The notes below the pieces were generated by a model. The model saw only the letters and a program-made list of their open reading frames with translations, ran no database searches and was not told the DNA's origin. DNA of 64,000 nucleotides, from positions 21,824,001-21,888,000 of the forward strand of contig OX597818.1 of assembly GCA_951406725.2 (NCBI GenBank), in the 5' to 3' direction. Shown one piece after another: positions 15,819 through 62,739 of this stretch (positions within the stretch are counted from its first letter, which is position 1; the number at the start of each line of letters is the position of its first letter). Source of the DNA: Octopus vulgaris (Eukaryota). The position numbers and the translations under genes were made by a program.

Positions 15819-16412
15819 AAAAGCCTCAATTCTCCTTTTACCTAATTTCCCCTTCATACCACATTAAATAAATCAGGTTGTATTTTCTATACTGGCAGTA
15901 TTACATTCTAGCCTTCCATACTCAAGGTTGATGGCAATAATTCCACTGGATCTACCAGTTCTGTTAAACATTAAATATATTACCACTGTTATGGTGTTAG
16001 TGATGGGGACCAACATTATTAAAGTTATTCTAATCGATTGTTACACATGAGTTAGCTTGGACAGTAAATATAACTAACTTCTTGTCATGCTATCCTGAAT
16101 ATAGTGATACGCTTAATAGAATGTGCAATCCCAAAAAGCAGGGGGAGAAAAATTGTGTATTATACACAAATACAGTTGTCACCAGCTGAAATTGAACATA
16201 GAACATAAAGAGATAATGAAATACTGCAAGACATTTTCTACTATATTCTATTGATTTTGTTACCCACCACAGATAATGAAGTACAAACTGTTGATTCTCA
16301 TCTTTTTTTATTTTTTGTTTTTCAAGCCATCTTCACATTGGCCCCGTTTCTGTAACAGCCACCATGACAAATTCCTTAGTTTATGTACTGTAATTTCATT
16401 TATATATATATA

Positions 16413-16457
<45 letters not shown>

Positions 16458-17289
16458 TATATAAATTATATACGTTTTTATTATCATTTTTTTGCAATTT
16501 ACTTAATCATTGACGTTTTATTGTTATTTTAATTTTAATATTTCTATTATATGTAATTTTCTAGATGGTGTAATTTAATTGTTCATTTTGAATTGATAAA
16601 AGGTGTTTTTTTTCTAATTTTTTATATATATATTATATTGTGTGAAATGTGATTTAGTATTTCTAAATTGAATTTTTTCCTTGTAAGTTTTGGATTTTAT
16701 TCCCTCAAATAATAATTGTTATTTATATATATATAATAGTAGGGAATATAATTTCAAAACTTACAGGGAAATCTTCAATTTAACAATTTTAAATCAAATC
16801 TCACAATGTATAATATGTATATAATTTAGAGAAAAACCTCTATTAAACAATTCATTAGTGGAAGATGTTATTCACACCATATAGAAAACATATACTATAA
16901 AAACCTTATTCTAAAAATCGATAAAGTACAATAAATAATAAATAGTAGTAAAAAGACTATGCGCGTTTCGTGGCTATATTTTCAAATTGATAATAATAAT
17001 AATAAAATCAATTCAATTTATAATTGAATCGATCTAAAATTAATTCTATTTAAAAATATAGTCACTCATGTGTATCAATATATTAGAATGACTATAATAA
17101 TGTTGGTCCCCATCACTAACACCATAACAGTGGTAATATATTTAATGTTTAACACAACTGGTAGATCCAGTGGAATTATTACCATCAACCTTGAGTATGG
17201 AAGGCTAGAATGTAATAAAGAAAATACAACTTGATTTATTTAATGTGGTATGAAGGGGAAAATTAGGAAAAAGGAGAATTGAGGCTTTT
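15819..17289. repeat. Local inverted duplication: 15819-16052 vs 17064-17289 (~230 bp arms, roughly 90% identical)
   Basis: GGTGTTAGTGATGGGGACCAACATTATT pairs with AATAATGTTGGTCCCCATCACTAACACC; TTCTAGCCTTCCATACTCAAGGTTGATGG pairs with CCATCAACCTTGAGTATGGAAGGCTAGAA. Confidence 0.95.
16585..17069. mobile_element. Two inverted AT-rich Penelope-like tail fragments (~16585-16705 vs 16741-16850); the minus-strand copy carries a truncated hammerhead (16955-17069)
   Basis: TTCCTTGTAAGTTTTGGATTTTATTCCCT vs AGGGAATATAATTTCAAAACTTACAGGGAA; minus strand ATGA-GTGACTATATTTT..AAAATATAGCCAC-GAAAC-GCGC. Confidence 0.55.
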
Positions 17290-18183: not shown

Positions 18184-19669
18184 CAGGGGCTGGACAAATA
18201 ATGGAAACACCTTAAAATTTCAAAATTTATTTTAATATGGGGTAGGCCTACCTTTGGTAGTAATTACAGCTTGAATTCTATGAAGTATGGATTCGTAAAA
18301 AGTTTGAATTGTTTCCAAAGGAATTTTTGTTCATTCTTCTACTAAAATAGTTTCCAGTTCTTGTAGTGGTGTTGATGGAGGATATCGACTCTTTACTTGT
18401 TTTTCTAAAATTCACCATAAATGTTCAATAATATTGAGATCTAGAGATTGTGGTGGCTAGATAAGATGTTCAACTTCACTAGAATGTTCCTCGTGCCATT
18501 CAGTAACAACTTCAGCTGTGTGAATTGGTGCATTATCATCCTGAAAGATTGCATTTCCCTCCAGAAACAGTTCAGCAACCATAGGATGAATTTGATCAGA
18601 TAGGTGGCACGTAAAATGCACCAATCCGACTGTGGCCGATGCCAGCCTCGCCTGGCACCAGTGCAGGTGGCACGTAAAAAGCACCCACTACACTCTCGGA
18701 GTGGTTGGCATTAGGAAGGGCATCCAGCTGTAGAAACTTTGCCAGATAAGACCGGAGCCTGGTGCAGCCTTCTGGCTTCCCAGATCCCCGGTCGAACCAT
18801 CCAACCCATGCTAGCATGGAGAACGGACGTTAAACGATGATGATGATGATGATGAAAACGCTTAAATAGTCTTGACTATTAATTCTGCCATGAAGGGAAA
18901 CCATTGGGCCAGCAGATTTGCGAGATATAGCACCCTAGATCATCACAGATCCTCCTCCATATTTAACAGTTGGAAGAAGGCAGTCTGGGATAAATGCTTC
19001 TTCTTTTGGCTGTCTCCACATGTATACTCAGCCAGTGGTCATAAATAAGGTAAAGGATGACTCATCTGAGAAAATAACATTCTTTCGCTGCTCTAGGGAC
19101 CTGTTCTGTTTTCATTCCACTCTAAATGTTTTGCAATGTTTGTTTTTGAAAGTAGTGGTTTTCTGATTGCAGCGCTCCCGTGAAATCGTGCTTTGTGCAC
19201 CTCCTGGCAAACAGATTTGTGGAAATTGGATTCTCAAGCTTTGCAGTAATTTTGGTAGCTGTACTTTTGTGATCCTTTCTAACAATTCATGTTAGAGTCC
19301 GATGGTCCCTATCTGAAAGTTTTGGTTTTCTTTCGGAGTTTTGTTTCAATGAGGAGGTTTTTCTCTCTTTCTCAAATGCTGTCATTACTTTCGAGACAGT
19401 AGTTCTTGATACACCAAACATTTCCGCTATTTTCATTATACTAGCACCAACAATTTGGACTTCTTTGAAAGTCCAAAAGATCTGTCATTTTAATGAATTT
19501 TAATTACCTTTTTCTGATAATATCTGAAAAGAAACAGCAATTTTAGCAGAACATATTAAGCAACACTAATAATAAATGAAAAGACATAAAAATAAACAAG
19601 CTTTTGACAGTTTTATAGATATTTCAAAATTATGATGCTAGGTGTTTCCATTATTTTGTACAACTCCTG
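18184..19669 (-). mobile_element. Full-length but decayed Tc1-like DNA transposon, DD36E catalytic spacing, TA target duplication
   Basis: TIRs CAGGGGCTGGACAAATAATGGAAACACC / GGTGTTTCCATTATTTTGTACAACTCCTG flanked by TA; transposase pseudogene from ATG 19488 to TAA 18232 with VIFSDESSFTL, TVKYGGGSVMI, FQDDNAPIHT, PQSLDLNIIEHLW, KGRPTPY*. Confidence 0.93.
18603..18854 (+). mobile_element. RTE-LINE 3' UTR fragment with (GAT)n tail inserted into the Tc1 transposase
   Basis: Ends CCAACCCATGCTAGCATGGAGAACGGACGTTAAACGATGATGAT, same terminus as 35184-35250 and 59631-59700; removing it rejoins YLSVLSDQIHP. Confidence 0.85.
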
Positions 19670-20981: not shown

Positions 20982-21908
20982 ACATTAACTATTCAGAGAC
21001 ATTTAGACATGCTTAATATTATTTTCAGTAGTAATACTGGAAAAAAAAATGATGGCTGTTGCCCACAAATCAGTATGACCTAGACACATGTACACACACA
21101 CACACACACACACACAGTCTTCTGGACTTCTTACCACATGGATCATCTGACAGCTGAGGGAGAAAGCACTAGGCTAGAACTCATTTTCAACTGAGTGAAT
21201 TCAAGTAACATGAAATGAAATGACTTGCTCAAGGATATAACATGCTGCCTACTTCAGAAATTGAATCCCAGCATCATGAACCCAACACTAACCACAAGAC
21301 AATGTACCTTCACACTGTATAAATGTAGTTCTGACATAATCAGCTGCATTACTTTTGTTGCATGATTGCAACTGTAACTAGTAAGGAATGTTGTTTCCAT
21401 TTAGGAACTGTACAAGCGAAGGGAGAGAGAGATTTAGCTTTCCACACTTTTCTGAAAATATCAGTGGTAAAAGTGAAGTGAATTAGCTTCAACATGATGT
21501 TAACACCAACTGACATGAAGTATTTGAATCTAACAGAGTGCATTGCCTTGCGGTTAGTTTTGGGTTCAATATACTGGGATTCAATTTTTGAAGTAGGCAG
21601 CATGTTGTGTCCTCGAGCAAGTCATTTCATTTCATGTTACTTGAATTCACTCAGTTGAAAATGAGTTCCAGCCTCGTGCGTTCTCCCTCCAGCTGTCACA
21701 TCTTCAATATTTTATTGTTCCATGTGGTAGGAAGGCCAGAAGAGTGTCTGTATTCACAACTATATATACACTGAATACAATTAGCAAAAACATGGTACAT
21801 GTGTCTAGGTCATACTGATTTGTGAGCAACAGCCATCATTTTTTTTTTTCTAGTATTACTACTGAAAATAGTATTAAGCATGTCTAAATGTCTCTGAGTA
21901 GTTAATGT
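20982..21908. repeat. Local inverted duplication: 20982-21307 vs 21538-21908, ~230-bp spacer, roughly 85% identical with indels
   Basis: CAGAGACATTTAGACATGCTTAATA pairs with TATTAAGCATGTCTAAATGTCTCTG; AACTCATTTTCAACTGAGTGAATTCAAGTAACATGAAATGAAATGACTTGCTC pairs exactly with its complement at ~21614-21667. Confidence 0.95.
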
Positions 21909-25861: not shown

Positions 25862-26470
25862 CAGTGGAAGCTGTTTATTATAATTATGGATAATGTTATC
25901 AATTAGCTATCTATCTATTATCTGTGTTTGTAAACAAACATGCACATACACACAAAATACATGTGATATATAATATATGCATACATAGTGCAGTGAAAGC
26001 TGCTTATTATAATCGTGGATAAGATTATCAACTGGTTATTGCTACCAAAATTAATGGGTCCAAAACCCCATATTTAAAGTAAATTAATAATTATCTGCTT
26101 ATGAGAATTAAAGTCCTGAATGTTATCAAAATTTTCAAATATATTGCAATACAGCCACAATCTCTATGGAGATTTTTTTTAAAAAAGTGCCGCTTGCTAT
26201 GGAGACACGGTAGGGTGTGGTTATGATGGTAATGGTGGTGGTGGTGGTGGAATCATGTTTGTGTTAGGAGTGGAGATACCTGTTCAAGTTTGGTTGATGT
26301 GGCTAATGGCATTGATATATATGTATTTAGACAGAAGAAGCTATTTGTCATGATCATGGATAATATTATCAAATGGTTATTGTTATCATAATTAGCAAGT
26401 CACAAACTTTATTTAAAAGAAATTAATATTATTTATCTATTTATTAGAATCAAAGGGTCAGATATTATAT
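25862..26470 (+). repeat. Three diverged direct copies of a pogo/Tigger-like MITE left end (25862, 25991, 26332)
   Basis: CAG(T/A)(G/A)(G/A)AAGCT..ATAAT/ATGAT..TGGATAA..TTATCAA recurs three times; the first copy is preceded by TA. Confidence 0.55.
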
Positions 26471-26809
26471 TCCTTAACTAATGTTATCAGGCAGTTATTG
26501 TTCTCGAAATGGCTTTTCATCAAAGTGATAAAAAAGTGATCTCTATAAAATATATATATATATTTTATTTAATTTAATAACTCATATGTGTTTGCATGTG
26601 TTTTATATTTTTAAAACTAAATTGTAGACATTATATGATCCAGTAACATTTACAAAATCTTCTGTCTAAATACATAAATGGAGACTGTGTGGTAGTTTAT
26701 CATATATAATATAATGTAAGTGCAGTACAACTGAATGATTAAGAATATTTTGCTTTGCAGCCATGAAATCCTGGGCTCATTCCCACCATGGCATCTTGGG
26801 CAAATATAA

Positions 26810-27192
26810 TTTCTGTAGTCTTAGTTCAATTCATACCTTGAGAGTGGCAATTAGACAGATGGAACTGGTATAGAAGCTCATCAGGTGAAATGTACTCATA
26901 ATTCAAAAGATATAGCCTTGTTGCACACAGTGTCATACTTGTTGCACACGGTGCCTAGAATTATAGTAAGGGTACACGTGCTTATGGAATATTCAGCCAC
27001 TTACATGTTTAATTCAGGAAGAGATAATTCAGTTCCACCATCATATATATAATGATAATGCATTATAACTTCAAGTTTCATACTTCGTTAGTGCTAAACA
27101 ATTATCAGATAAAAAGAAATTCAGCTGATCATTAAAATATAATTGACATGTCACTGATATTTTAGTATGTGGAGTTTCCAGTATCACATCCT
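26810..27192. repeat. Donor segment B (SINE 3' part plus unique flank), copied inverted to 30600-31003; its part 26966-27137 also has an older direct copy at 27477-27649
   Basis: Near-exact reverse complement of 30600-31003 apart from one 21-bp repeat unit and one substitution seen. Confidence 0.95.
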
Positions 27193-27788
27193 AGGATAAA
27201 AAGTTTAAAGTGGCATAGTCCATTACTTGTTAATATTGTTGGGATGAGTTATTTTTAACTTTCATTGTTAGAAATATAGTCTTGGAATACTTATGTAAGG
27301 TGAAAATGTATAAATATATTTGGAGATGAGGAGAGAAGGAAAGTGTATAAAAAGCTATTTGGAAAGAAATATAAAAAGTTAGAGTTGAAAATGTAATGTA
27401 ACAATATATTATCATATATAATAAGATCTGGAGTGGCTGAAATTGAAGAGGGAAATTGAGAGTTTCATTGTTTCTGGTAAGGATACATGTACCTATGGAA
27501 TATTCAGCCACTTACATCTTTAATTCTGGAACAGATAATTCAGTTCCACCATCATATTATATAATGATAATGCATTGTAACTTCAAGATTCTTACTTCGT
27601 TAATGCTAAACAATTATCAGATAAAAAAAAATCCAACTGATTATTAAAACGATAATTTATTTAGGCATTGAATTTATTGCTACATAAAAATTAATGTAGA
27701 AGGATAAATAGTTGGCAGGGTTATAAAGTGTGTTGTTTAAATATTAGTAATATCAGGAATATTTGTCATAAGGTTATCTTACAAAAAA

Positions 27789-27842
27789 TAATCTTACATT
27801 TCCCTCTTCATACTTAAGTATGAAGAAGGAAATGTAAGATTA
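27789..27842. repeat. 54-bp spacerless palindrome centred on TT|AA
   Basis: TAATCTTACATTTCCCTCTTCATACTT|AAGTATGAAGAAGGAAATGTAAGATTA, 26 of 27 pairs. Confidence 0.95.
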
Positions 27843-29926
27843 CTCCTAGTAAAAATTTAGGTGTCAATCTAATTATTCAAGTGTTAGTATAATCTTCCTA
27901 TGTTTCAAGAGATACTTTTTGAAATAGCAGCAGTTAATTAATATTTCTAATCAATATTGAATAGTTTGCAGATTTAAGGTTTCACAATATGAAATTCTTC
28001 TCAGCTATACATAACTTACATCATTTTGCCCTGTTTCTGTGTGGTGTATATCACTCAAGAATCTTCCATTTGATATTCATACTGCTAGCATTTACTTAAA
28101 AGTGTTAGATATAATTGGATAGTTGCATTGTATTCCTCATACCTGTATCTCTGAAGGAAGAATTATAGTTAAAGTATCATTGTTTAAATTTACCTTCCAC
28201 TATAGATTAGGAAAAGTTTGCTTTTCAATAAAGTTTCTGCTTGTGTTAAGAAAAAAAAATCTCCCAACAGCTGCATTTGAAATCAACATAGGGTCATTTG
28301 CAATCTTGTTGGCCTATATATACCAAACGGATTCTAAATTTGCATCTGTAAATATTGATTCATATTGAGACACTGCATTGACAATATCCCAGCATGCCAA
28401 TGCACATTATTGAAGATACTTTTGAAAAAGACCTTATTTCAGATTTTTAATCCTTAGTAAATATATGGATTTATTTCTTCCAATAACTTCTCTGAAATAA
28501 CTCGCGATGTAGATGGCATTGGGTTGGGTAGCTTTTATATTTATTATATTTCTAATTAGACTGCCAAAGGCAATAGCAGTATATGTGTATTTTAAAAATA
28601 AAAACTGAAGCAAATTTGCAAATGCTATTTGATGTTAAAAATAAAGGAGAAAGAATAAAAACTTTTAAAGTCAAGCCACCATATCACTATCGACAGCGCC
28701 ATCATTATTCCTATGTTCTTCATCATCTTTATTTGATCTTCCATTTTCCTATACTGATGTATTTGAATAGCTCTACATTTGCCTTCATCTGTTTCATCTC
28801 AGTTCTGAGAGCCAATAACAATTATTTCTTACATTGGTTAAGGTTTTTAAGGGTGGTATTTAATTGGTTGAACTGACTAAGGCATGAGAGGTACCTATTT
28901 TGTTTTCCTTTGAATGGATAAAATGCACATGAAAGTATTTACTCTGGCAATCTACCACTTATGCCACTCCACCCTCATCATTTATTATAAGCATATTCTG
29001 ATTTGTATTGGGATAAACAATTGGAAGTGAAGAGATTCATGCCTTCAAGAGTTATGCTCCAAGCTCTTTCAACATGAGAAATAATTCATAAATTTGTTAA
29101 TTTGTAAATGATGTACTTTCACATAAGCCATGATAAACTTAGCCTGTCACCTTGTTTGGCATCACTGGTTGGTTCCTGGATACCTTCAGTGGAATCCACT
29201 AATTTGCAAGAATTTGAGCCCTCTCTCCTGTCTGAGGATAACTTATTCCTTACCTCTCACCAGTCTTGGAGACCATGAAAAATTTCATGGGCATTTCTAT
29301 TCCTACTCTAAACCATAACAAAAAAATATTTTTTTAAAGAAAAATACAATACTGATAATGGAAATATCTTTTAGAAAGGACATGTGAAATATTCGTGATT
29401 GTATCAAGTTTAAGGAGGCACTTTATAAGTAACAATACAGCTTACATTCTATGTCAGCCCTAAAACATAGGTCATTGGCACGAACATTTTCTGAATGTAA
29501 AACTGTCTTTGCATACAAAATTACTGAAGATAAGAGAACAAACGAATGTATGTGTTTAATTATTCAAAAATGGACATTAATACCTTTCTAGGTGAGATAA
29601 TGGATATAAATATCTTTATCAATGTAGAAGAAAAAGTGTAAGGTATTGTTAAAGTGAGACATAAAAATATTGGTCAAGATAAGTAAACAAGAGTATCCCC
29701 CTCCACACACACACACACACACATTTTGTGTATGTGACTTTATACTTACAAATTAACTAACAGCCAATACATTACATGAAGTAAAGTTGGTATGTTTTTT
29801 GTTTGTTTATTGGTTAGGGATCTGTGCAGTTATGTGCTGCCCAGTCATTCATCAGATGACTTTCTTTTCTTCAAATGCCATCTGATGCATCTTGTCAGCT
29901 CAAAAGTTTAAGTAATGTCTCTTTAA

Positions 29927-30148
29927 CCCTTTAGCATTCAGATTATTCTGTTAAATATAATGCTTATCTATTCATGTTGTTTTGAATTAATTATGCATTT
30001 ATATTGCAGTTTTGAAATTTTGACGATGTGATTGTTTATTTTTTAGAATTTCATTGCAGGGTAGGTGTGAGAGGCCAGATATGGCCAGTTTGAACAGAAA
30101 ACATGTAGAATATTTGGGCTGGATATGACCAGTTTGAATGCTAAATGG
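29927..30148. mobile_element. piggyBac-type MITE (~220 bp)
   Basis: TTAA (29923-29926) then CCCTTTAGCATTCAGA; right end TTTGAATGCTAAATGG (2 mismatches); the right TTAA is split by the 30149-31543 insertion. Confidence 0.75.
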
Positions 30149-31543
30149 TCACTACCCATGTCTTCTAAAAATCTCACTACCCATGTCTTCAACACTTACT
30201 ACATTCCTCTCCTCCACTCTCTACTCATGCTTCTTTGGCAATACCCTACCATTTACATTATGACCTCCATACTTCAAGGGTATGCCTTGGCACTTGCCAC
30301 CATCCCTCTCCTGCTCCCTCTTGTACTCCTGCTGTCTCCCACCCTCTTTTTCCTGCTCTTCTCTCAGGTTGGGTAACCATGTATCTCCTTTACAGTAGCA
30401 CACCTCATTTCTTTCTCTCTCTCTCTGGCTGGGTAACCATGTACCTCCCCTACAACAAGACACCTGTTTCTATCTCTGCCTCACTATAACCTTTCATCAT
30501 CTGACACAAGATTCCCACTTCCAATTCCCCTTCCTCTCTCAAAGGATCTTTGTTTTGCAAGTTACTGGGTGACCCTGCCAGTGCTGGTGCCACTTAAAAA
30601 GGATGTGATACTGGAAACTCCACATACTAAAATATCAGTGACATGTCAATTATATTTTAATGATCAGCTGAATTTCTTTTTATCTGATAATTGTTTAGCA
30701 CTAACGAAGTATGAAACTTGAAGTTATAATGCATTATCATTATATATATGATGGTGGAACTGAATTATCTCTTCCTGAATTAAACATGTAAGTGGCTGAA
30801 TATTCCATAAGCACGTGTACCCTTACTATAATTCTAGGCACCGTGTGCAACAAGTATGACACCGTGTGCAACAAGTATGACACCGTGTGCAACAAGGCTA
30901 TATCTTTTGAATTATGAGTACATTTCACCTGATGAGCTTCTATACCAGTTCCATCTGTCTAATTGCCACTCTCAAGGTATGAATTGAACTAAGACTACAG
31001 AAAATGGTATTAAAAAGCAGGATTTATATGTTAATCCTAGCAGAATCTTCCTGTAAGTTAAACAATATAATTTTGAGTTATATCTGTAAAGGTTAAATGA
31101 ATAGGTAAGATATTGAATTACCAATACAAAGGCCATGTTATGTTCCAAACTCACTGCTATTTGAGCAGAATATGAGGAGACTTTATTCCATGTAACTCAG
31201 CTTACCAAACACTCAATATTAGGTATTATAGCATCCTCAAAGATTTCCTCTTATACATTAGTACTCTATCTACATTATCGATAGCTGTTTTATTTAGGTC
31301 TTTTGTAGTACTGTATATGAAGGCATATGGCATTGTGGTTAGGATGTTAGACGCATGATCATAAGGTTTGATTCTAAGATTGAGCAAGTAGCACTTCATT
31401 TCACATTGCTTCATTCTACCTAGCTGAAATGAGCATGGATTGAGTGCTGATGCAGTCCTCTCTTCCTCTAGCTTCACATACTAGATATTCTGTTGTTGAG
31501 GGTGGGAAGGTTCAAGAAGGTTTCTATGTTTGCTCCACCTAAA
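30149..31543. repeat. Composite templated insertion: A 30168-30601 = rc(33750-34183); B 30600-31003 = rc(26810-27192); C 30999-31543 = 37783-38327
   Basis: Near-identical sequence (paired ORFs 30235/33862, 30221/33888, 31226/38010 in the ORF track); junction microhomologies AG, AGAAA, TAAA; 17-bp false start TCACTACCCATGTCTTC at 30149-30165. Confidence 0.95.
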
Positions 31544-32447
31544 CATATTTACACACACATATTTCTGTTCTTGCCTAACTGTCATAGCTCTGTGAATCCC
31601 TAATGTCTGCTCAGATATAGTCATGAAAGCCTGGTTTAGTGATATACAGATACACACATCTTTGCTCTTTTTTAAAGATTGCTTTGCTAAAGTTGGTGAT
31701 TTTATTTCTCATGCCAATGGATTGTACACTGGCTTTGTGCCTTCAAAGACATGTGGAATAAAATATCCCTTGAGTGACAGGTATGGATTAGCAACAAGAA
31801 GAACATCTGATTGTAAAACAATGCCTCAGTAATATAATCATCTAATCCATACTAGCATGAAGAATAAAACAGACATGAAAATGAATGATTAGATTTTAAT
31901 GAACTTGTTATTATCTAACCATAATGTCAGCCTTGATCTAGCAGATCTTTGATCAAAGGTGCACCTGTCATGACCATCCCATTTTCTATTCAGACAGTGT
32001 ATCTAGGATTACATTGTCCAATGTATTTTTTTAAAGATGGATAGGAAGATTTGGCTGTTATTTTTGGCTAGTCAGGGGACCACTTAAGGACTAACTTATT
32101 GGCTTGTGCTGGTGCTTATTACTATCGTTGGAGGTTGTGGTTTTGTTGGTCATGATGGTGTAAATGGTGGTTGTGATGATAGCACTGTTGTTATGCCCTA
32201 GGTCATCTGTGATCAAACAGACATGATTAAAGGTACCTCAATTATGACAATCCATTATCTAACACATCCTTCTTTTTTGTTTTTAAGATGGTATGGTTTG
32301 GTTTAAAGGAGATTTGGCTGATATTTCTTGTCAGTCAAGCGACCATGTGGAAGCACCGAAAATGATTTTGTTTAATGTTGAGTAATAACAAACAGTCAGA
32401 GGGAAAAATGGTTTTAAAATATTTAAATATTGTTTTATCTCTTTCAG

Positions 32448-32497
32448 AATTACACCTACAACCCACCAGTTGAAAAACCTGGAGATTTCAGCGCATA
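32448..32497 (+). CDS. Candidate 50-nt coding exon (NYTYNPPVEKPGDFSA.. or ITPTTHQLKNLEISAH), host gene unidentified
   Basis: ttgttttatctctttcag acceptor, gtaaga donor, GC-richer apparently unique sequence between AT-rich flanks. Confidence 0.55.
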
Positions 32498-32778
32498 GTA
32501 AGAATCTTTTCTTTTTAATTTAAAAAATATATAGTTTTTATATTTTATTTCTATTTATTTTTTTGTGATTAAAATAACAGCTTTCAAAATGGAACATGGA
32601 TTGATTTAACAGCCCTGTGTAATAATCAAATGAGTTACCATTAACAGACAGCTTGTATATCTTCCTGTCTATACCAACACTGCTATGTTGTGTTTTAATT
32701 TATTACTCCAATCACATATATGTTTATAAATCTAAAACTGTTTGTTTAATACATCCATGTTGCTCTATTTTTTAACAT

Positions 32779-32834
<56 letters not shown>

Positions 32835-32958
32835 CTGCTCTCTCACTTCATTCAGCATCACCTCATTCCCCAGTGTTTTTATTGTTAAAGAAAGAAGTGT
32901 GTAAAATTTTGATTCCAACTAGTTTGTTAACCTTTGTAGCATTTCTCTGTCCTCCTGC

Positions 32959-32986
32959 AGCTTCACAGCTAATGCCAAACATAGAT
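32959..32986 (+). CDS. Possible next or terminal exon start (would extend ..DFSA-Y-FTANAKHR*)
   Basis: Strong acceptor catttctctgtcctcctgcag; phase compatible with the NYTY.. frame of 32448-32497. Confidence 0.25.
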
Positions 32987-33487
32987 AAGCCCATAAACTT
33001 AAATCCTGACTGATTGATTTAGTAGGTTGTTTTTATAACATCAACACCAATCATTGATTTCAAATAGATCAACAAAGTGAAACATCAAGCTAAGCAACGA
33101 TGTTACTTCTACTACTGAAAAAATATGTTGCATTTAACTACTTATCTAGACTGATAGGTCGAGGTGCATTGAAAATGATGTCACTAAGATATTGACCTAC
33201 TGACTGGAAGGTCAAGAAATCATATACTGCTTTCTGTGCTCTGCTGTGGTTTGTAGCCAAGATACTTAACTCTAAATTAGTCCAGTCCACTTAGTTGTAT
33301 ATAGATACAATGATGTAATAGGCTGATCATTTCAAGCTGCTGAAGCATTATGTAATTGAAACATGTTTTGTTAGCTTGCAGGGCTGGATTAAAAGTCTCT
33401 GATGAGTGTTGTTTCATCATCATCATCAGGTGTGCTATTAAGTTAGACATGAGCTGGGCCTATACTGGCCGAAACCTGTCAAAGTTA

Positions 33488-34183
33488 TCATCATCATCAT
33501 TGTTTAACGTCCACCTTCCATGCCTGCATGGGTTGGACAGTTTGACAGGAGCTGGCCTAGCAGGAGCCTGCTCCAGACTTCTGTGTTTGTTTTGGCAGGG
33601 GTTTTATTGTGGGATGGTCTTCCTCATCGATCACCCAGCAGAGTGGACTGCTTTTACATGCCACCTGCTCAGGCGAGGTCAGTTTGGCATGGTTTTTTAT
33701 AGCTGGATACCCTTCCAAACACCAACCACTTTACAGTGTGGACTGGATGCTTTTTAAGTGGCACCAGCACTGGCAGGGTCACCCAGTAACTTGCAAAACA
33801 AAGATCCTTTGAGAGAGGAAGGGGAATTGGAAGTGGGAATCTTGTGTCAGATGATGAAAGGTTATAGTGAGGCAGAGATAGAAACAGGTGTCTTGTTGTA
33901 GGGGAGGTACATGGTTACCCAGCCAGAGAGAGAGAGAAAGAAATGAGGTGTGCTACTGTAAAGGAGATACATGGTTACCCAACCTGAGAGAAGAGCAGGA
34001 AAAAGAGGGTGGGAGACAGCAGGAGTACAAGAGGGAGCAGGAGAGAGATTGTGGCAAGTGCCTAGGCATACCCTTGAAGTATGGAGGTCATAATGTAAAT
34101 GGTAGGGTATTGCCAAAGAAGCATGAGTAGAGAGTGGAGGAGAGGAATGTAGTAAGTGTTGAAGACATGGGTAGTGAGATTTT
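33488..34183 (-). mobile_element. RTE-tail-type retroposon copy; 33750-34183 is donor segment A
   Basis: (CAT)n then TGTTTAACGTCCACCTTCCATGCCTGCATGGGTTGGAC, the reverse complement of the RTE 3' terminus; related fragments at ~8330-8600, 10340-10495, 34300-34540, 51235-51440, 51710-51860. Confidence 0.7.
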
Positions 34184-35183
34184 CATTTCTAAGCTGATCA
34201 AGTGTACTACATCACTTCATGAAGGCATAAGACTAGATATATATTAAAAACAAAGTCGAGTCGTTCTGGGATGAAAATTAAATTTCTAATGATGATGAGC
34301 ATCATTTTTTAACATAGATCCACTTTTCTATGCTTGTATGATTGGATGGAATTTTTGTTGAGATGGATTTTCTACTGCCAGAAACCATTCTTGTTACTAA
34401 CCCTCACCAATTTCTAAGGTAATATCTCCCAGTGACCAGGTATGCTTTTCATAGAAGATTGGGAACAAATGACACCACTTGTATGAAGGAGACACTCATT
34501 TCCAACTATCATGTGATGTCAAGGCAAAGAGAAATTTGTGTGTGTGTGCCTACCAAATCCACTTGCAAAGCTTTGGTTGGCCTGGCACTGTAGTAGGTGT
34601 CATGCAGTGAGATTGAACCCAGAACCATGTGTTTGGGAAGCAAACTTTTTACCACACAGCCATGCCTGCACCTAAGTATACAATAAATTAGAAATTAATA
34701 CTTGTAAATAGCAAATCAGTTATAATTAGTCAAAAGAGATTATTATTTCATTATTATCATCTTCATGTCTATTTTTACATGTTGGCATACAGTGAACTAT
34801 TTATTGAACAGCATATTACAACTTCTCACAATAATCTTTCAATTTGCTTGGGAAGTTGAACAAGCTCAGATCTCATCTCAACACTTCTTATTTGTCTGTT
34901 TCCATCCTTTGTCTGTTATCATCACGCAGTGTTGTTTCATCCCACATTCATTATACTTTTAAATATCATTTCTAGTATTCTCATATAGATTCTTAATTTT
35001 TTATTTTATATTTCTGTGTAAAGAATCATTTGACTAACATCTGTGAAATGAAACAGTAACAGATTGATAATATTTGATAAAGCATTAGAAGCACCAATCT
35101 GATAGCAACAGACACTGACAGGATTTGAACCATCTATCTATCCCTTGCCACTTAATAATATCATTACAAATTGAAATATTACT

Positions 35184-36540
35184 ATCATCATCATCGTCGT
35201 CATCATCGTTTAATGTCCGTTTTCCATGCTAGCATGGGTTGGACGATTTGACTGGGGTCTGGGAATCCTTGAGGCTGCACCATCATCATCTGGAAAAGAC
35301 TTTCTAACTAGAAAGGGTATGGCCTGGTCAGCCTGTAATGACATGCATAAGATCTGGTCATCAAATCTAAGTAGAGACTTCAAACTTGAAATATTCAAAG
35401 CCACAGTCGAACCAATTCTACTATATGGCTCAGAAACCTGGACGTTATCAAAGAAGCTTGAGAGGCGGTTGGATGGAACCTACCCTCGCCTCCTTATGAG
35501 AGCTCAAAATCTCTCGTGGAAGTGCCATCCAACCAAAATGCAAATATATGGGAAATTACCACCTGTGTCATCTCTTGTGAAAGGTAGGAGAGTCCAGTTT
35601 GCTGGACATTGTTGTAGAGCTGAAAAAGAAGTAATTTCTACTCTTCTCCTCTGGAAGCCATCTACTCGCAATACCAGAGGGCGCACACTCTCCTACCCTG
35701 ATGTAATCTCCAGGGATACAGGCATCCAGCAACAGGACCTCCGTAATGCTATGATGGACCGTGAAGTCTGGCGTAACATAGTAAATTCCATTGTCTCGAC
35801 CATGGTCGAACAATGATGATGATGAGGCTGCACCAGGCTCCAGTCTGATCTGGCAGTGTTTCTGCAGCTGGATGCCCTTCCTAATGCCAACCACTCCATG
35901 AGTGTAGTGGGTGCTTTTTACATGCCACCAGCACAGGAGCCAGAGGAGGCTGGCAACAGCCACGATCGGTTGGTGCTTTTTATATGCTACCGGTACAGAA
36001 GCCATTCAAGGTGGCGCTGGCATCGGCCACATTCAGATGGTGCTTTTTATGTGCCACCGGAATGGGTATCACAACTACAATTTCCATTTGATTTTCATTT
36101 TGATGTTGATGTACTTGACTCAATAGGTCCCTTCAAGTACAGCAGGTCACCCCACAATCCAAGGTACTTTTGAATGGGCTAGGGCTGGTTATACGAAACT
36201 GGTGTAGGATACAGCCGTGAACTCACTTTATTTGCTGGGTCTTTGCAGTCACAGCATATCTCCAGAGGTCTCGGTCTTTCATCATTGCCTCTGTGTGGCC
36301 CAACGTTTGAAGGTCATGCTTCACCACCTCATCCCATGTGTTCCTGGGTCTACCTCTACTCCAGATTCCTTCAACTGTTTGGGAGTGGCACTTCTTCACA
36401 CAGCTCTCCTCATCCATCTGTAGTACATGACCATACCAGCGCAAATGTCTCTCTTGCATGCCATATCCGATGCTTCTTATGTCCAACATTTCTCTCAGAG
36501 CGCTTACACTCTGTCATGCATGCACACTGACATTACACAT
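35184..36540 (-). mobile_element. 5'-truncated RTE (BovB-like) LINE: C-terminal ORF remnant, 3' UTR and (GAT)n tail, interrupted by a second LINE
   Basis: ORF 36223-36489 MQERHLRWYGHVLQMDEESCVKK..VEG..RGRPRNTWDEVVKHDL..DRDLWR is the typical RTE C-terminus. Confidence 0.88.
35283..35822 (+). mobile_element. 5'-truncated RTE/RTE-X-type LINE nested in the previous element, 13-bp TSD
   Basis: Open frame RKGMAWSACNDMHKIW..FKATVEPILLYGSETWTL..RLDGTY..RRVQFAGHC..AMMDREVWR; TSD TGAGGCTGCACCA at 35270-35282 and 35823-35835; (GAT)n tail. Confidence 0.92.
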
Positions 36541-36764
36541 TATTATGTTAAACATTTATCAGTTGATTCATTGCTGATATTGGTAAACTCAGTTTGTGTT
36601 TGCTTTAAGTAGTACAACAAAAGTATAAACCTTTGATAATGAACTTTATCTAAAAACATACTATAGTGACTGATATGTTACAAGAAGAAGGATATTAATA
36701 TAAACTGAAATATTGAGAACTTTACAACTTTTTATCTGTTATGTATTTTTATTTATCATTATCA

Positions 36765-37100
36765 AGAAGCTTGCTTTGCAACCACATGGTATTGAGTTCA
36801 GTCCCACTATGTAGTACTTTGAACAAGTGTGTTCTACTATAGCTCTGGTTCAGTCAATTCTTTGTGAGTGAATTTGGGTAGAGGGAAACTGTGTGGAAGC
36901 TTGTCATGTAGATATTTGTGTGTCTTTGTTTTTGTTCTTCCCTCTCCCATTATTGGTTTGTTTGTGTCCCCTAGCAAAAGAGGCCAATAGAATAAGTACC
37001 AGGCTTAAAAGATAAGTACTGGGCTCAATTTGTTCAGCTAAACCCTTCAAGGCAGTGCTCTAACATGGCTGCAGTCCATTGACTGAAACAAGAAAAGGAT
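36765..37100 (+). mobile_element. CORE-type tRNA-SINE (octopus OR-like); other copies ~26730-27040, 34545-34670(-), 45460-45825, 46185-46580, 48715-49015, 51490-51640(-), 51960-52345
   Basis: Family motifs AAGAAGCTTGCTT.CCAACCACATGG..GGTTCAGTCCCACT..GGCACCTTGGGCAAGTGTCTTCTACTAT..GTGAGTGGATTTGGTAGA.GGAAACTG, internal (GT)n, ending GACTGAAACAAG.AAAAGATAAA. Confidence 0.85.
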
Positions 37101-37782
37101 AAATGAATAAACTTAATCTTTTGACATGGATTTGACCAGCTATGTATATTTTCTTTGTTATAAATTTCCTTTTTCAGCCCTTTTAATATAATCACCTTAA
37201 GCTGTTCGAAGTTATAGGGAAGTTGTAGAACAGGTTGTGGTGTGGCACTACAGTTGGCTTTTGTTTGTTATTCCATACACTGTAGACAGCAGGTGTGAAT
37301 CCAATGCTGACATATCTTTATTCATATACAGTAAATAACTGCAGACATAAAGGAAATAAATAATAATGATCATAATTATAATGATCCAGTTGATACATGT
37401 CAACATGTATCAAATGACTGCAGCACAGTATCTCTCTATTCTTCTCAGTCTTGCAACATCATGTGTGAGGACCAACATTCTCAAATCTGGTTTCACCACT
37501 TCTTCCCATATCTTCCTTTGTTTGTTTGTATATAACCACAAGTTCCCGCCACTGTCATCTCATTTTCTCTCAGCAGGTGATATATTATTGTCTATTAGTG
37601 TGATTTTTCTAGAGCAATATAGTTTTTCTGTGTACATATAGACCAGTACTTTTTAATGTCCATCAACTTATCAACTTACTTACACTTAACCTTTCTTGTA
37701 ATGATTAAACTGTTTTGTCTGTGCTTAGATATTAAAATGCAATATTCATTTATCATTACTTTAGGATATTAGTATAAGACAA

Positions 37783-38327
37783 AGAAAATGGTATTAAAAA
37801 GCAGGATTTATATGTTAATCCTAGCAGAATCTTCCTGTAAGTTAAACAATATAATTTTGAGTTATATCTGTAAAGGTTAAATGAATAGGTAAGATATTGA
37901 ATTACCAATACAAAGGCCATGTTATGTTCCAAACTCACTGCTATTTGAGCAGAATATGAGGAGACTTTATTCCATGTAACTCAGCTTACCAAACACTCAA
38001 TATTAGGTATTATAGCATCCTCAAAGATTTCCTCTTATACATTAGTACTCTATCTACATTATCGATAGCTGTTTTATTTAGGTCTTTTGTAGTACTGTAT
38101 ATGAAGGCATATGGCATTGTGGTTAGGATGTTAGACGCATGATCATAAGGTTTGATTCTAAGATTGAGCAAGTAGCACTTCATTTCACATTGCTTCATTC
38201 TACCTAGCTGAAATGAGCATGGATTGAGTGCTGATGCAGTCCTCTCTTCCTCTAGCTTCACATACTAGATATTCTGTTGTTGAGGGTGGGAAGGTTCAAG
38301 AAGGTTTCTATGTTTGCTCCACCTAAA
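37783..38327 (+). repeat. Donor segment C (545 bp), direct copy at 30999-31543
   Basis: No differences seen by eye; ORFs 38010-38261 and 31226-31477 translate identically. Confidence 0.95.
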
Positions 38328-38725
38328 ACAATTAGCGAAATTGTGGTATGTACTACCAAATCATCTTTGATTCTGAGTGATAGCTGTAGTTATAATATAG
38401 CATGTGTGCGTGCACACACATACATGCATACACACACACACATGCGCACACACACACACACAAAGAAATTGAAAGTGTATTAGACAATCAAAGCTGTAAA
38501 GCGTTTTGTAAAAATGTCTCTCAGAACATTCTTTTTGAAAAATAACAATAAATAAATAAAATATTAATAAAAATCTTCAGAATCATTTTTACTTTTAATG
38601 TCTTAGTTATGAAGGGAAGGGAGCACTCATAGCTTTTTGCAAGGTCTCTAAGTGAGAAAGAGAGAAAAAAACAGCTTGGAGATTAACTTAAAATAGCAAA
38701 TCTTTTTATTTTATTTAAAATATAC

Positions 38726-38757
<32 letters not shown>

Positions 38758-40514
38758 ATTATTTGAAAAATATGAATATCAAAGTAAGAAATAAATCACA
38801 GAATATGATCTAAAATAAAATAATGAAAAATAGAAAACGCACAAGTGTGAGTTTATGTATATGTATGAGTATATTTACATACATGTGTGCATCTGTATAG
38901 ACATGTATGAGGGTGTATATAAAAGAAGCAAATAAAAAATAAAATAATTCAAAGAAAACAAAAGCAAAATAACCTTGAACAAATCCCAAATAAGCCATAT
39001 GTTCTTCATTTTCCACCTATAATTTGGTCACATCTGTTTAGTGGTAATTATAAATATTTCACCTCCCTAAGTTTGACAAACAAGGATATAGTTCTGCTAT
39101 TTATATTACAGTTCCCTACAATTTAAAATATCTGCACCTGATATAACTTGCATATTTATTTAGTAGATTGGATTCTTTAATTCTCTGGATGAACTACAGA
39201 AACCAGAGTAGAGAATGGACTGTGGAGTTTCACAACAGGATTAATCTACTTTTCTATTTTACTGTTGTAGATGTTTTTTAGCCTTATGTTAACCCTTATG
39301 TCCTGATCCTGTAGATCTATGATTCAAAAATGTTCTAGCTGTGACTAACCCTTAGTTTATTCAGATATAGTATATCTAGATCTACATTATTTAATGTGAC
39401 TGCATTTTTTAAAGACAGTTTGTCAGAGAGAGATTGGGTGGTTATCTCTAGCAAGTTTTGTGAACATGTAGAAGTGTTCTTGATACTTTAAGGAGTTTTG
39501 CTGCTACTGTTTAACTTTATACCAATCCTGACTGAGTAGAATTCCGTTATTCAATCTATCTTTTCTAAGATGGTAGAATAGGATTTGAGAGAAATTTAGT
39601 TAATGTTTCTTGCAGGTCAATCAAAGGTGTTCCAGCTACACCCATCATTCTTTATTCAGATGTAATGTCTAGAACTGCAATAACCTATATGTCTTTTAAC
39701 CTGTTATATCTAGCAGACCAAATTGTCATGTACAGGCACATTTATTGGCTTTTAGAATTTGAGCTAAAAGTATGAAGTGCTTCATTTCAAAGACTGTTGA
39801 GTTTCTTGTAGATTTTGGAGTTTCTTGGTGTGGGCACTCATACATTTAGTTGAATATCTCCATGGAGCTTCTCTAGCTACCTTGTGTCTACTTTGGATAT
39901 TTGTGGCATATTCAATCTTTGAGGTGATGAAGTTAAAGCAAAATCACATTCATTCTTTGTCATTTGAACTTCTAGCAGACAATGGAACTGTATAGATAAA
40001 AAGAAGGGAAAAACTGATCGATATAATTAAATTAATTACATTAATTTGTAACTATCAAGAAAGTAACAACAGAAACAAAGAATTAGTTACAAACAATGGG
40101 CAGAAATGAAATTGAAGGTTTTCTATATGAAATAATCAACATATATGGCATTACTGAATGTCTCTTCTTTTATAGTAATTAAGTAATTAATGCTACAAAT
40201 CTCATAGCTGTTTTATCCTTTACTTCATTGTCCAAATATCTTCTTTGTTTTGCTACTTGTTGTTGATGGTGCTCCTACTGCTACTATTATTATACATTGT
40301 CTTTTACTGTTTTCATGAAAGAATGTCTTTAAGAGACATGTTTTGGCTTAAGAAAAGTCATCTGTTGAAATCTCCTTTGTTGCTACTAAGTCTTGTTTAA
40401 ACTTGACAGAAAGTTACTCAGTAGACAAGCTACATGTATTTTACAATCACACAGAAATTTACTACCACTACTACTGCTACTGCTGCTAATGCAAACACCA
40501 CCACCACATAATAA

Positions 40515-42730: not shown

Positions 42731-44970
42731 CATTTGATGAAAGCTTCTGCCTGCACCATCAGACCTCAGCTCTCTTTGCCAAATTTTTACTAATTTTAAA
42801 TACTGATTTTTTTTTTCTTCTTCTTCCTTGTTTTTCCAACACAGACAATCATTGTTTCTACAAACTCTAGTAATTTCCTGTAGAAGCAGAGTTAGATACC
42901 TTTGTTCAGCAACACAGTACAATAACAATAGTATGAACTAAGCCTATGACTATGTGATCAATATTCTGCCTGAAACTTATATCCATTACGCCTCATAAAT
43001 AGCACAATAAATATATATTCAGAAATGTACTAAATCAAAAATTTATTAGCTTTATTTTCATCCAAAATTAACAAAAACTTTGTCCTGCATCTATAAACAA
43101 TTCATCAGTTGTTCGATTTCTTTTGGTCAAAGATGTTAACTGGTTTGATGAGAAAACTTGTTCTTATACTAGTAAGACCATTAGAAAGCTCAAGAACTCA
43201 TCATTCAGAGATAGAAGGGAATATATAAAAATAAATGCAATATTTTAAGATTATTTAATAATATTTTGTGCAATCAGCTCAGAACAAACTTGCAATGGTT
43301 AGAAGAATGTCATTTCAAATTGCATTTTATTGTTCTTTCATATAGTGTTACTTACCTTATAATTTATCATTTCACTGTTGATAATAGCTGTGTTGTTATA
43401 TTCTGGAAATGAAAAAAACTCTCATGGTCTAACTGCAGTTAAAATGCTGGAAGAGTGGGGGGTTCAAAAGAAGTTTTAGCTAGAAATGTAGAACAAATGA
43501 ATCCAGAACCAAAGTCTTTGGAAAACGCACATTAGGTAATCATCATAATATATTTTTCTGGAAAAAGAAAAGAAATAATTGCATACTGTCAACTTAATGT
43601 GACAGTCCCATGAAGGGAATAATGGCAGTTCCAGTGCTATGTACATATGGAAAGAATAAATAAGAATTATGTAGAGAATGCTACAGGTTAAAAATACATC
43701 AAAGAATTCTTGGAGTGAAGAGGTTTCTTATGAATCTGAAATTTAGTAGGAGTGTTTTGCAGCATTTAAAAATTTATTGCACCATACTGGTATGGTGTAG
43801 ATTAGTCTACTAAACAAGTTAATGCTCAAATGTGTATAGCAAAGCATAGATCAGGATCAATTGGCCAACAGCTGCAATAAGATTTGGTGTATGAGGACAT
43901 TTACATTTGGAATAGAAATGTCATGGCTGAATATTCTGTCCAACAGCTGCCACTTTGACATACTTAAACATTATAAAACTGCACTTTTGTATATTTGTAT
44001 AATACAAGCTGTAGGCTGGAAAACAAAACATGAACTTCAGTAGTGTGTAAATTTATAATGTCTCTGTAGGTGATTATATTCTGTTCTTTTATCTTTCGGC
44101 ATTATTGAACCCATTTTGTTTTGTTCAGGCATGCATAAGTTGATAAGTGCTCAAATTAACATTTCTGTGGAGTATTTAAAAAATTGGGACTTAACAGTTG
44201 AACAACCCACTCATATGGGAAGCAAGAATGGTGCCTATTTTTCAGCTAGATAGATTACTCTTATGCATGCCTGAAATATTTGATAATTTAGCAAAATAAT
44301 TAGGCTTGAAATGTGCTAAATAAATACAGGTATATATGAAATTATAAAATCTAGATAGTCAAAGAAAATAACTGTTTTGTTATAAATTAGAAATTTACAT
44401 TTTAGATCTTCAATAACTTTCATCTCAAGTCTTTTTATAAAGTAAAAGAGAGAAGATGCAGTACCCATGATCTTTGTACACTCACTGAGACTCATGGTAC
44501 TGATGTAGCTTATGCCCATGGTTCAAGTATTTTCCAAGTGTGATCTGGTTTGAATATTTACAGGAGTTGAACCCTACTAATGGCACTTAACTTCTTAATC
44601 ATTCATGTTATTTTTTCCCTTATTCTTTTGTCACTAATTATTAGATAAACTGGAGCAAGTATAGACAAGTTCTCAATTTACAGTCAGGGCTTGCATTTGA
44701 TGAAAGGTTCTGCTTGCACCATCAGGCCTCAGCTCTCTTTGCCATTTTTTTACTAATTTTAATAATTGATTTTTTTTTTGTTCTTCTTCCTTGTTTTTCC
44801 AACACAGACAGTCATTGTTTCCACAAACTAATAATTTCCTGGAGAAGCAGAGTTAGATACCTTTGTTCAGCAACACAGTACAATAACAATAGTATGAACT
44901 GAGCCTATGACCATGTTATCAATATTCTGCCTGAAACTTATATCCATTACACCTCATAAATAGCACAATA
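42731..44970 (+). repeat. Local direct duplication: 42731-43009 vs 44694-44970 (~280 bp, roughly 90% identical)
   Basis: AGAAGCAGAGTTAGATACCTTTGTTCAGCAACACAGTACAATAACAATAGTATGAACT is identical in both copies. Confidence 0.95.
43356..43402 (-). CDS. Candidate 47-nt minus-strand exon (xYNNTAIINSEMINYK)
   Basis: tttttttcatttccag acceptor and AAG|gtaagt donor; only one frame open; opposite strand to the other candidates. Confidence 0.25.
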
Positions 44971-59630: not shown

Positions 59631-60012
59631 TCATCATCATCATCATCATCATCGTTTAACGTCCGCTTTCCATGCTAGCATGGGTTGGACGGTTCAACTG
59701 GGGTCTGGGAAGCCCGAAGGCTGCACCAGGCCAGTCAGATGTGGCAGTGTTTCTAAGCTGCCTTACCAGGAATATAGCATCAGTGGTGCTTTTCCCTGGG
59801 ACAAACCTAAACTGCATCTCATCTAAACTAACTCTCTCTCTAATTAGTTGGGCTATGACCCTCTCCGTAACCTTCATTACCTGATCCAACAGCTTGATAC
59901 CTCTGTAATTATTTGTATCCAGGGCATCACCTTTACCTTTGTAGCAGTTGACTAGTATGCTGCTACACCAGTCATTGGGTATGACTCCTTCGTGTATCAC
60001 CTGGTTGACTAT
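59631..60012 (-). mobile_element. Internally deleted RTE LINE: RT N-terminal fragment fused to the last ~125 nt of the 3' UTR
   Basis: IPNDWCSSILVNCYKGKGDALDTNNYRGIKLL..MKVTERVI..EMQFRFVPGKSTTDAIFLVRQL, then directly AGAAACACTGCC..GGACGTTAAACGATGATGAT. Confidence 0.9.
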
Positions 60013-62739
60013 TACTTACGTAAATCTAGTCAACAGCACTATCTTCCACTGGCCTTTTGCCTTATCAACAGAAACTAGTGTTTTCTAAATATCAAAGAAA
60101 TAACTGGAAGCTTGTTCTATTGTGTGGTTGCCATGAAGAAAAATATAAGGTGTATGTGTATATTTGGAGCAAGATTAAAATACATTGCCTCACATGTGCT
60201 AGTACTTCACAAAAAAAAATTGACATCATCATCATCATCATCATCCAGTTGTTGAAAGAGTGAAGGCTTAAGCTGTGATGATAAAAAGTCTGTTTATGTA
60301 TATTGTTCAGAAATTTAAGGTTTGATGACATAGCAGTGGTTATGACTAAAGCAGTGTTGGTATGGGTGGGAGTATTTTCAAAGCACAAAAGGTTTGATAA
60401 AATACTCCCCATAAACAGCTGGATTTGGGGTAAAATGGAAAGTAGTCAAGAAGGAAATTAGGGTTAGTTTCTCTGACTCAATACAAGGCAAACAGTCAAA
60501 TAGAAAACAAAGAACCCTCAATATTTACTTGTGCAGTAAAAAAATATTCATTATAGCTGTAATATCAAAAAAGTCTTTATGGTTTTGCTATAACTGAAGA
60601 CATTTTCATTGACCAGATGGCCCTCTGTTATTTACACAAAATACTTCAGCCGGCAGATGTAGTAGCTCTCCACTGTTGTTCTGAACCATAGAATTAACTG
60701 AATTATCAGAAAATATTAAAATATAAATGTAGATATAACACTGCCACCTTGTCCTCTCTCTTATTTATCTATTTTTTTTCAACTTTAATTTAAATTTTAG
60801 TAATGATGATATTGATTTGATTTTATTGATCCAAGAAGGATGAAAGGCAATGTTCAGCTTAGTGTGATTTTGACTCAGAACACAAAGAGATGTAACTAAA
60901 TATTACAAGGCATTTTGTTCAATGATTTACTGATTATTGTCAGCCGCTACCTTCCTACGAAATATTTATTGGTGCTATATTTTGGGGTATGCATGTTGAC
61001 TTAGTTTATAGTATAAACATGTAGTGTAAACACTCAAACATTGTTGTTATCTTTCCAAATCCTGTTGTATTTCACATGAAATTTTTGGTCCTTCAAAGTT
61101 GTCTTAGTGTATAAGTTGACCTACCTTTTCTGATTGTAAATTTTGGTCTGGTTGTAAATTTTGTATGTCAGAAAATACAGTACTATTATTATTCATAATA
61201 ATAATATTCTCAAAGTTCAGAAAATATATCCTTATTTGGCACTTTGCAGTGTTTCATCATTTTTACATTCTGATGGGATTGACATTGCCTTTCATCCTTA
61301 TAGATGTCGATAAAATAAATACTTGTCAAGTGCTAGGGTTAATGAAATCAACTAAACCTCTGCTCCATTGTTTCCATTTTCCCCACCAACAAAGAGCTTA
61401 GGAATATTTTAAAATTCTTTGACATTTTCTCAAAGTGGTGCTCCTGCATGACCACAGTCCAGTGACTGAAACTAGTAAAAAGATAAAAGGATTTTATAGC
61501 GTACATATTTATTTTTTGATAATTTTGCATTGTTCATTCATTTTGCTTTGTTATGTATCAGGACATTGCATCCTTCAAAAGTTCCATGCTTCCTGAAATT
61601 CATAAGCACCACTACTGCACCTATGCACCCTTTCTTTTTTATGCCTCTTTTACTGTTCACTTTTCTGTCTTCTTGTGTTTTATTCTGTGTACTGTGCATA
61701 TACTTCTTGCTTACATTACTGTCTTTCTTTACTTGACATATTGCTACTTTCTGTCCTGAGCATACATTAATCTCATTATTATTATCAGTGGTTCTATATG
61801 GCCACCTCTGTAGTATTGGTGTTTATCATAATGGAAGTAGCAGTGAACATGCTGCCTTAGCAAATTTTGTAGACACAGCTATAAACAGAAACAGTTTGAG
61901 GGGGCACAAAAAGATTTTTTTTAAATTGTAAAAATGTAAACTGAAATGACAATAGCAAAAGCACTACCAGTACCAATTTATTTTTTCTAGCATTACTGAC
62001 TAAAAAGAGCTATTGGACATGTGTAAACTCTGGACAAAAGAAAGTGTAGAAGTGATATATCATAAAAGTGAATGATTACTTGTCCAAAGAACTTGTGCAA
62101 GAAACATGAAGGGGAAAATTATATGCCTCTGATTCTTTAAAAAGTGGGGTTGGAAGGAGGTTATTCAGACTGGTTGTTGAAGGCAGGCCGCCTAATTGTT
62201 TACACCAGGATCTATTGCCCAAAACAAAGAAAATCAGTAAGGGAGATGGATAGTATTAAACAACAGCAGATAACTATGATCACTCTGAGGTTGCAAAGCC
62301 ATAATCACAGCTCCAAGAATAGCCAGGGTGAAAGCAAATAGAATCACTTCATTCACAGAACCACTGGCACCTGGAGCCAATGAGACTTGGCTCTAGGATG
62401 CTGAGGGATCTTAACTTTCAGCTCAATGCCAACCAGAAGTTACAGACAGCAGTTTCACCTCACAGTCTTGTACTAACAGGAAGATGGAGCTCTGGAAAAG
62501 ATAGGAAACCGTCAGGGCACACACAAAAAGATTATGAGCCCAGACTGGAGGCAAATATAAAACTGGAAGTCTTTCATCAAAAATTTCCACTCTAGAGTGC
62601 CTAAACTTTATAGTAATTTGAAGGATTAACCAAAGCCTGATCAAGTTGATGATAAACCTACAAGGGATAAAACAAATTTCATGCTGACTGAAGGAAGGAT
62701 AAGGGCAAATTTTGGTTAGAGTGGGATATGTGGTGATCC

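Follow-up and report, generated by a model that had tools for sequence, protein, structure and literature searches.

How did 1.4 kb of local sequence come to lie at the end of a transposable element, and what kind of break did it close? The window, i.e., the whole stretch of 64,000 nt of Octopus vulgaris DNA that was analysed (all coordinates are window positions), carries between 30149 and 31543 an insertion composed of pieces that are also found a few kilobases away. The copies were mapped by self-BLAST of the window, followed by exact extension and base-level alignment. Sequencing evidence was taken from Logan contigs, a separate assembly, for four of the 24 listed runs, belonging to four studies (X1, X2, X3, and X18), and the contigs of these runs were placed on positions 28000-32700. 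Contig depth is a weak measure of copy number, and the bridging of a join was counted only with at least 31 letters on each side. X1 may be the source of the window sequence itself.

Read from left to right, the insertion opens with a 17-mer (30149-30165, plus strand) that aligns with the minus strand of 34177-34161, and whose first T (30149) is equally readable as the first T of a lost TTAA. Two unmatched letters, TA (30166-30167), fit neither neighbour's donor continuation and precede the three long pieces, all numbered on the plus strand, that we will refer to as A, B and C. Copy A (30168-30601, 434 nt) is inverted from 33750-34183 with an identity of 431/434, its three substitutions (30288, 30301, and 30305) all falling within 18 nt. 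Copy B (30600-31003, 404 nt) is inverted from 26810-27192, from which it differs by one substitution (30884) and one additional 21-nt unit, and copy C (30999-31543, 545 nt) is direct from 37783-38327 and shows no differences. The letters common to both sides of the joins are AG (A/B), AGAAA (B/C) and TAAA (C/flank), the last of which (31540-31543, plus strand) closes C and at the same time opens the flank past the lost target-site copy; counting all four joins, the microhomology amounts to 1, 2, 5, and 4 letters. BLAST bit scores of 645-987 for the copies exclude a chance origin of the A, B and C matches. The sequence-only reading had described a patchwork of three inverted or direct local copies with these same extents, the overlaps AG, AGAAA and TAAA, a 17-bp abortive first copy ahead of A, and difference counts of about three in A, one plus a 21-bp unit in B and none in C; self-BLAST and alignment bear out all of it.

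All three donors are still present in the window, as recovered by self-BLAST. With the insert removed, the donor of A (minus strand) lies 2.2 kb to the right of the break and that of C (plus strand) 6.2 kb to the right, and the donor of B (minus strand) is situated 3.0 kb to the left. The template order therefore follows rising distance (2.2, 3.0, and 6.2 kb), and B and C, not A, are oriented as expected of resected single strands; with n = 3, both patterns are too weak to count. Part of copy A is a high-copy repeat, the summed depth reaching tens of thousands over 30355-30668, and because of this its local donor is assigned by its identity only, with the window as the search space. Contigs of X2 and X3 with single-copy-like depth equal the insert over 30216-30299, including 30288, with no differences. 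Since these contigs match the insert and not the window donor at 30288, the differences of A are at least partly donor variation, and at least one of the three is probably a donor allele rather than a copying error; the cluster is possibly one multi-base change in the donor. The donor at 34046-34063, opposite 30288-30305, has a 10-bp palindrome that is absent from the insert and from the X2 and X3 contigs. Copy C equals the window donor exactly, and X2, X3, and X18 each differ from it at 1/545 letters; this pattern is consistent with recent copying from a donor on the same haplotype.

The serial-copy reading overlooked where the breakpoint lies, namely in a TTAA target-site copy that adjoins one end of a high-copy element, a position that suggests a cause for the break. 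This inverted-repeat element (29927-30148, plus strand) is a non-coding, high-copy, piggyBac-type MITE of 222 bp, and is the only one of its kind within the window. Its left TTAA target-site copy (29923-29926, plus strand) is intact; its terminal inverted repeats are 14 bp long and match at 13/14 positions, with CCC at the left end and, in this copy, TGG at the right end, where other family copies read GGG. The CCC...GGG ends, which we take to be a hallmark of piggyBac-type elements, are the basis for this placement. Summed depth over the element exceeds 100,000, and many contigs in all four runs start at 29920-29923 with unrelated flanks (agreement 0.36-0.43). Loose ends past 30145 read GGGTTAA in 29 contigs of X1 and 42 contigs of X2, the flank agreement of loose contig ends at both element termini being 0.36-0.48. 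A TTAA is present on both sides, on the left in the window and on the right in an empty site from X2. Judging from its ends and flanks, we classify it as a miniature element of piggyBac type that is present in high copy number and duplicates its TTAA target. No piggyBac transposase with matching ends was found in 34 of the 47 window frames or in 13 frames from 26 metagenome loci. In O. vulgaris, recent activity has been attributed to 474 piggyBac insertions belonging to six families (PMC13282606, Table 1), and the repeat library behind that work may already name the present element.

The 26 metagenome loci hold a different TTAA-flanked family of about 230-250 bp, in DNA of 41-49% GC, that shares only the first 20 letters with the window element; among its distinct-flank copies with enough sequence, 8/16 end in AAAGGG (at most one mismatch) followed by TTAA. 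Related transposases or horizontal transfer are possible origins of the shared letters. These loci do not settle the superfamily of the window element, because only 20 letters are shared and the family is another one.

The insertion point falls within the right TTAA target-site copy of this element, and both edges of the damage can be located closely. The left side stops at the last base of the element, 30148, or at 30149, with only TAA or TTAA lost; the right flank resumes at 31540, directly after TTAA, with no more than four letters ambiguous through the shared TAAA; the left end of the element and its TTAA are undisturbed. The empty site is carried by one X2 contig (depth 80.4) that joins 30149 to 31540 via TAA, and the empty allele that had been predicted from the sequence was thus three letters too short. 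According to one preprint, piggyBac nicks the 3′ end of the element, after which a hairpin forms and both element and flank are left with 5′ TTAA overhangs (bioRxiv 10.1101/015289). Trimming of both overhangs with retention of the two 3′ ends would remove nothing but TTAA, in line with the observed loss (TAA or TTAA). A random left join would fall on these two positions at either of the two element ends with a probability of 6e-5, and on the same two positions at any of the window's 551 TTAA with a probability of 0.017, both values being post hoc. Moreover, one-ended events have been described for 11/23 piggyBac autointegrations in HeLa cells (PMC3952818).

On this positional evidence, a one-ended transposase cut at the right end of the element is the trigger that we find rather probable. 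For the whole explanation, i.e., a one-ended cut, a free element end that primes synthesis on three templates, and subsequent rejoining, we estimate a probability of about 0.58. Against the trigger stand the facts that there is a single event whose coincidence was spotted post hoc, and that the cut end carries TGG, the perfect left end being untouched. Furthermore, a piggyBat structure suggests that cleavage is blocked until two ends are paired (PMC11707139); we conjecture that a paired complex with the left end uncut or seamlessly religated would reconcile this constraint with the scar.

Under the one-ended cut, the scar could be laid down as follows. A staggered cut around TTAA would place one 3′ end at the last base of the element and the 3′ end of the flank beyond TTAA, and both 5′ TTAA overhangs would be trimmed rather than religated. 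The 3′ end of the element would then make a 17-nt false start on donor A and restart 6 nt upstream; 434 nt of A would be copied before a switch to B (404 nt) via AG, aided by an 11/12 match upstream, and a further switch would lead from B to C (545 nt) via AGAAA. Finally, the closing TAAA would pair with the terminal four letters of the flank 3′ end. Judged by the length of the tracts, the copying may have been MMBIR-like or multi-invasion synthesis, with microhomology joining as the closing step. The earlier proposal of serial copying from three nearby templates, with microhomology joins and near-zero loss, fits every check made.

The direction of synthesis was addressed with a junction-homology score of our own, comparing the 20 letters before a join with 30 letters of the next donor, against 11,314 control positions. 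Left to right, the primer homology at A/B is reached by 0.5% of the controls and that at B/C by 0.9%, A/B having the 11/12 match directly upstream of the shared AG; the first two joins are ordinary (18% and 85% of the controls). Right to left, 4/4 joins are ordinary (26-36% of the controls). When the shared letters are left out, A/B alone stays significant, with B/C at 26%. The junction homology thus weakly favours synthesis primed from the 3′ end of the element.

A real templated insertion may also have arisen without a transposase, through a fork stall at the element stem or a chance break, followed by FoSTeS/MMBIR-type switching in either order; we hold this second reading to be possible and distinctly less probable than the one-ended cut. 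It draws on the folding of the element strand, which with its ends paired reaches -21.2 kcal/mol (z -2.6, 3/200 shuffles equal), and on the base of that stem, which including TTAA sits exactly at 31540, where the flank restarts. The mutated right end is possibly a poor transposase substrate, and microhomeology at joins has been published as a sign of replicative repair (PMC6902434). Four older local duplicate pairs lie in the window with no piggyBac-type element beside them, so that a transposase trigger may be dispensable for local copying. However, a stall at the stem base predicts right-to-left synthesis, and extra primer homology in that direction is found at 0/4 joins; re-entry at the last base of the element is not predicted either, and the AT-rich stem would have to span about 190 nt.

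Both of these readings take the insertion to be real DNA, and the alternative is a library or assembly chimera, arising from a mis-join or from template switching of the amplification type. Chimeras formed during amplification are local and joined by microhomology, and they are often inverted. Signs of the insert were found in one of the four runs, X1, the one that is possibly the window's source. In X1, a 258-nt contig (31514-31771, no differences) crosses from C into the right flank, and its 30 C-side letters (26 without the shared TAAA) are one short of the 31-letter bridging rule. No contigs across the other three joins (flank/17-mer, A/B, and B/C) were found among those listed for the four runs, and all four joins on one molecule are present in the window sequence alone. 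In addition, the X1 donor-B contig is unbroken through the point of the expected A/B fork, which we can only ascribe to graph cleaning beside a high-copy repeat.

Several observations weigh against such a chimera, which we consider improbable. The separate assembly shows a join together with break points: besides the C/flank contig, X1 has a 545-nt contig that is exactly C (545/545) with a depth of 86.1, against depths of 53.9-70.4 in those X1 contigs that were listed from outside the copies. In the same run, a contig of 119 nt (30885-31003) with a depth of 116.6 is limited by the substitution of B and the end of B; one end of an X1 donor-B contig also falls beside that substitution. Contigs ending at the limits of B and C are the graph forks expected if B and C each have two contexts. 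The X1 depth ratios are about 1.5 for C and about 2 for the shared part of B, which a single chimeric molecule would not give, depth being weak evidence. Joins of two to five letters would, we infer, be too short for a graph mis-join, and a breakpoint at a transposon end is unexpected of a chimera. In the other runs (3/4), C lies inside unbroken donor-context contigs of 1347-1426 nt, and the C-to-flank depth ratio is 1.07 (X2), 1.31 (X3), and 1.06 (X18) vs. 1.60 in X1. In X3 and X18, the match of the flank contigs begins at 31540, beyond which lie 37 and 29 letters of other sequence, respectively. The insert therefore appears in one of the four runs, and the other three appear to be without it, which together argue that the insertion is real DNA and not fixed. 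We are highly confident that it is a real, recent, multi-template repair product. Two outcomes that would have undone the sequence-only reading did not appear: an assembly chimera, given that X1 contigs hold the C/flank join and stop at both ends of C, and an A-B-C mobile unit, given the unbroken donor context of C. The event is known from one non-coding allele.

An RNA-templated origin, through cDNA that was spliced or had switched template, is very unlikely, and so is a composite mobile element: A and B are both minus-strand pieces in transcript order, and a pyrimidine run plus AG precedes the start of B, but the donor of A continues with CA instead of GT, C has the opposite orientation, poly(A) is lacking, the site shows a deletion and no new target duplication, and the intact donor context of C in three runs speaks against a composite element. 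Splicing of A to B was accordingly rejected, there being no GT after the donor of A. A search of Rfam gave 0 matches within 26000-39000.

By its tested features, the event works like, and belongs to, the local n-jumps or bridges of templated insertions: the donors are local (two inverted, one direct) and retained, the raised depth of C in X1 points weakly to a gain in copy number, and the string returns to the host site. In the PCAWG work, such n-jumps and bridges likewise string local template copies together through inverted and direct joins, and the string returns to its starting chromosome leaving a gap, as here (PMC7025897). Those events, however, were found in human tumours, whereas the present one is apparently constitutional, in an invertebrate, with a gap of 3-4 nt and at a transposon end (PMC7025897). 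FoSTeS/MMBIR complex insertions share the iterative switches, 2-9-nt microhomology and imperfect matches by the join (PMC5120786; PMC6902434). The described cases are large human copy-number variants for which an initiating cut is not defined (PMC5120786; PMC6902434); unlike them, the present event has pieces of 400-550 nt and two break ends that can be located with base precision.

Regarding end joining by polymerase theta, microhomologies of 1-6 nt are characteristic, and the four joins (1, 2, 5, and 4 letters) lie within that range. Typical theta inserts are short. The copying of short inserts from the immediate flank, also characteristic of theta, does not agree with tracts of 404-545 nt drawn from 2-6 kb away, and the earlier statement that the tracts exceed typical theta inserts is upheld. 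The repair of Tc1 breaks by polymerase theta in the C. elegans germline resembles the present case in starting from a transposon break, in being heritable and in its minimal homology, and templated inserts from nearby DNA were described in 24% of the deletions (PMC4490562). There, the element is excised with deletions of about 7-13 bp, whereas here it stays and the insert of 1.4 kb comes from 2-6 kb away (PMC4490562). A possible parallel from worm repair mutants (200-500-bp inserts from 2-8 kb) was dropped, as it was not found in the literature searched.

Single-ended piggyBac transposition frees one end and leaves the other untouched, as proposed here, and the freed end integrates at another TTAA, from a plasmid in cultured cells (PMC3952818); unlike that system, the end proposed to have been freed here lay at a natural site in a chromosome and would have served as the primer for repair synthesis. 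Yeast Dna2, Rad27 and RPA mutants also give multi-fragment inserts joined by microhomology, 5-7% of the insertions being complex (PMC11724301). They are mutant cells whose donors are mostly distant, whereas the donors here are local (PMC11724301); capture of pre-made fragments is a possible alternative route to the present scar. Template switching in human germline break repair has been reported as well (PMC7615360). A literature search covering few subscription journals and no supplements found no report of templated insertions in cephalopods, nor, within the texts accessible to it, of a repair scar of this kind at piggyBac or other transposon ends. The class of event is known, and a transposase trigger would be new.

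Complex templated insertions are usually read without knowledge of what caused the break or where its ends lay. Here, the position of each end can be given to the base and agrees with the cut of a known enzyme, and therefore the scar reads as an ordered record of a false start, three tracts and a closure. More broadly, it is conceivable, albeit doubtful, that in this lineage numerous TTAA-flanked miniature elements are still cut one-ended by piggyBac transposase, even at imperfect ends, and that such germline breaks repeatedly give rise to kilobase-sized patchworks copied from within the neighbouring 10 kb. If true, this would be a transposon-driven shuffling of local sequence in which the transposon is left in place; if recurrent, it would turn resident non-autonomous elements into permanent sites of breakage that rearrange their neighbourhood without moving. 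No functional effect is claimed, because the event is one allele and no gene was found in the window frames scanned (34 of 47).

The gene scan found no gene in 34 of the 47 stop-to-stop frames (at least 85 aa) of the window, in which short exons could be missed. The sole hits, both under the curated cut-off, are DUF6451 (35214-35813) and RVT_1 (59659-60015), and the stretches 35310-35813 and 59659-60015 are fragments that resemble retro-elements through these weak matches. The former fragment splits a short repeat, the halves of which match 18603-18855 and 59631-59760.

The window also contains several local duplicates. One older direct pair, 26966-27144 vs. 27477-27657 (90% over 181 nt), overlaps donor B; the matching part of the insert has low summed depth in all four runs, and the pair looks low-copy rather than like a transposon. 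Three others, 42731-43009 vs. 44694-44970 (direct, 93%), 15819-16052 vs. 17064-17289 (inverted, 91%) and 20982-21307 vs. 21538-21908 (inverted, 79% with gaps), are 230-370 nt long and 0.2-1.7 kb apart, and on their arrangement are possibly older products of local templated copying. Finally, a single X1 contig spans positions 28000-29700 with one difference (28931), where coverage in X2, X3, and X18 is thin or lacking; filtering or a further presence/absence variant may be behind this gap.
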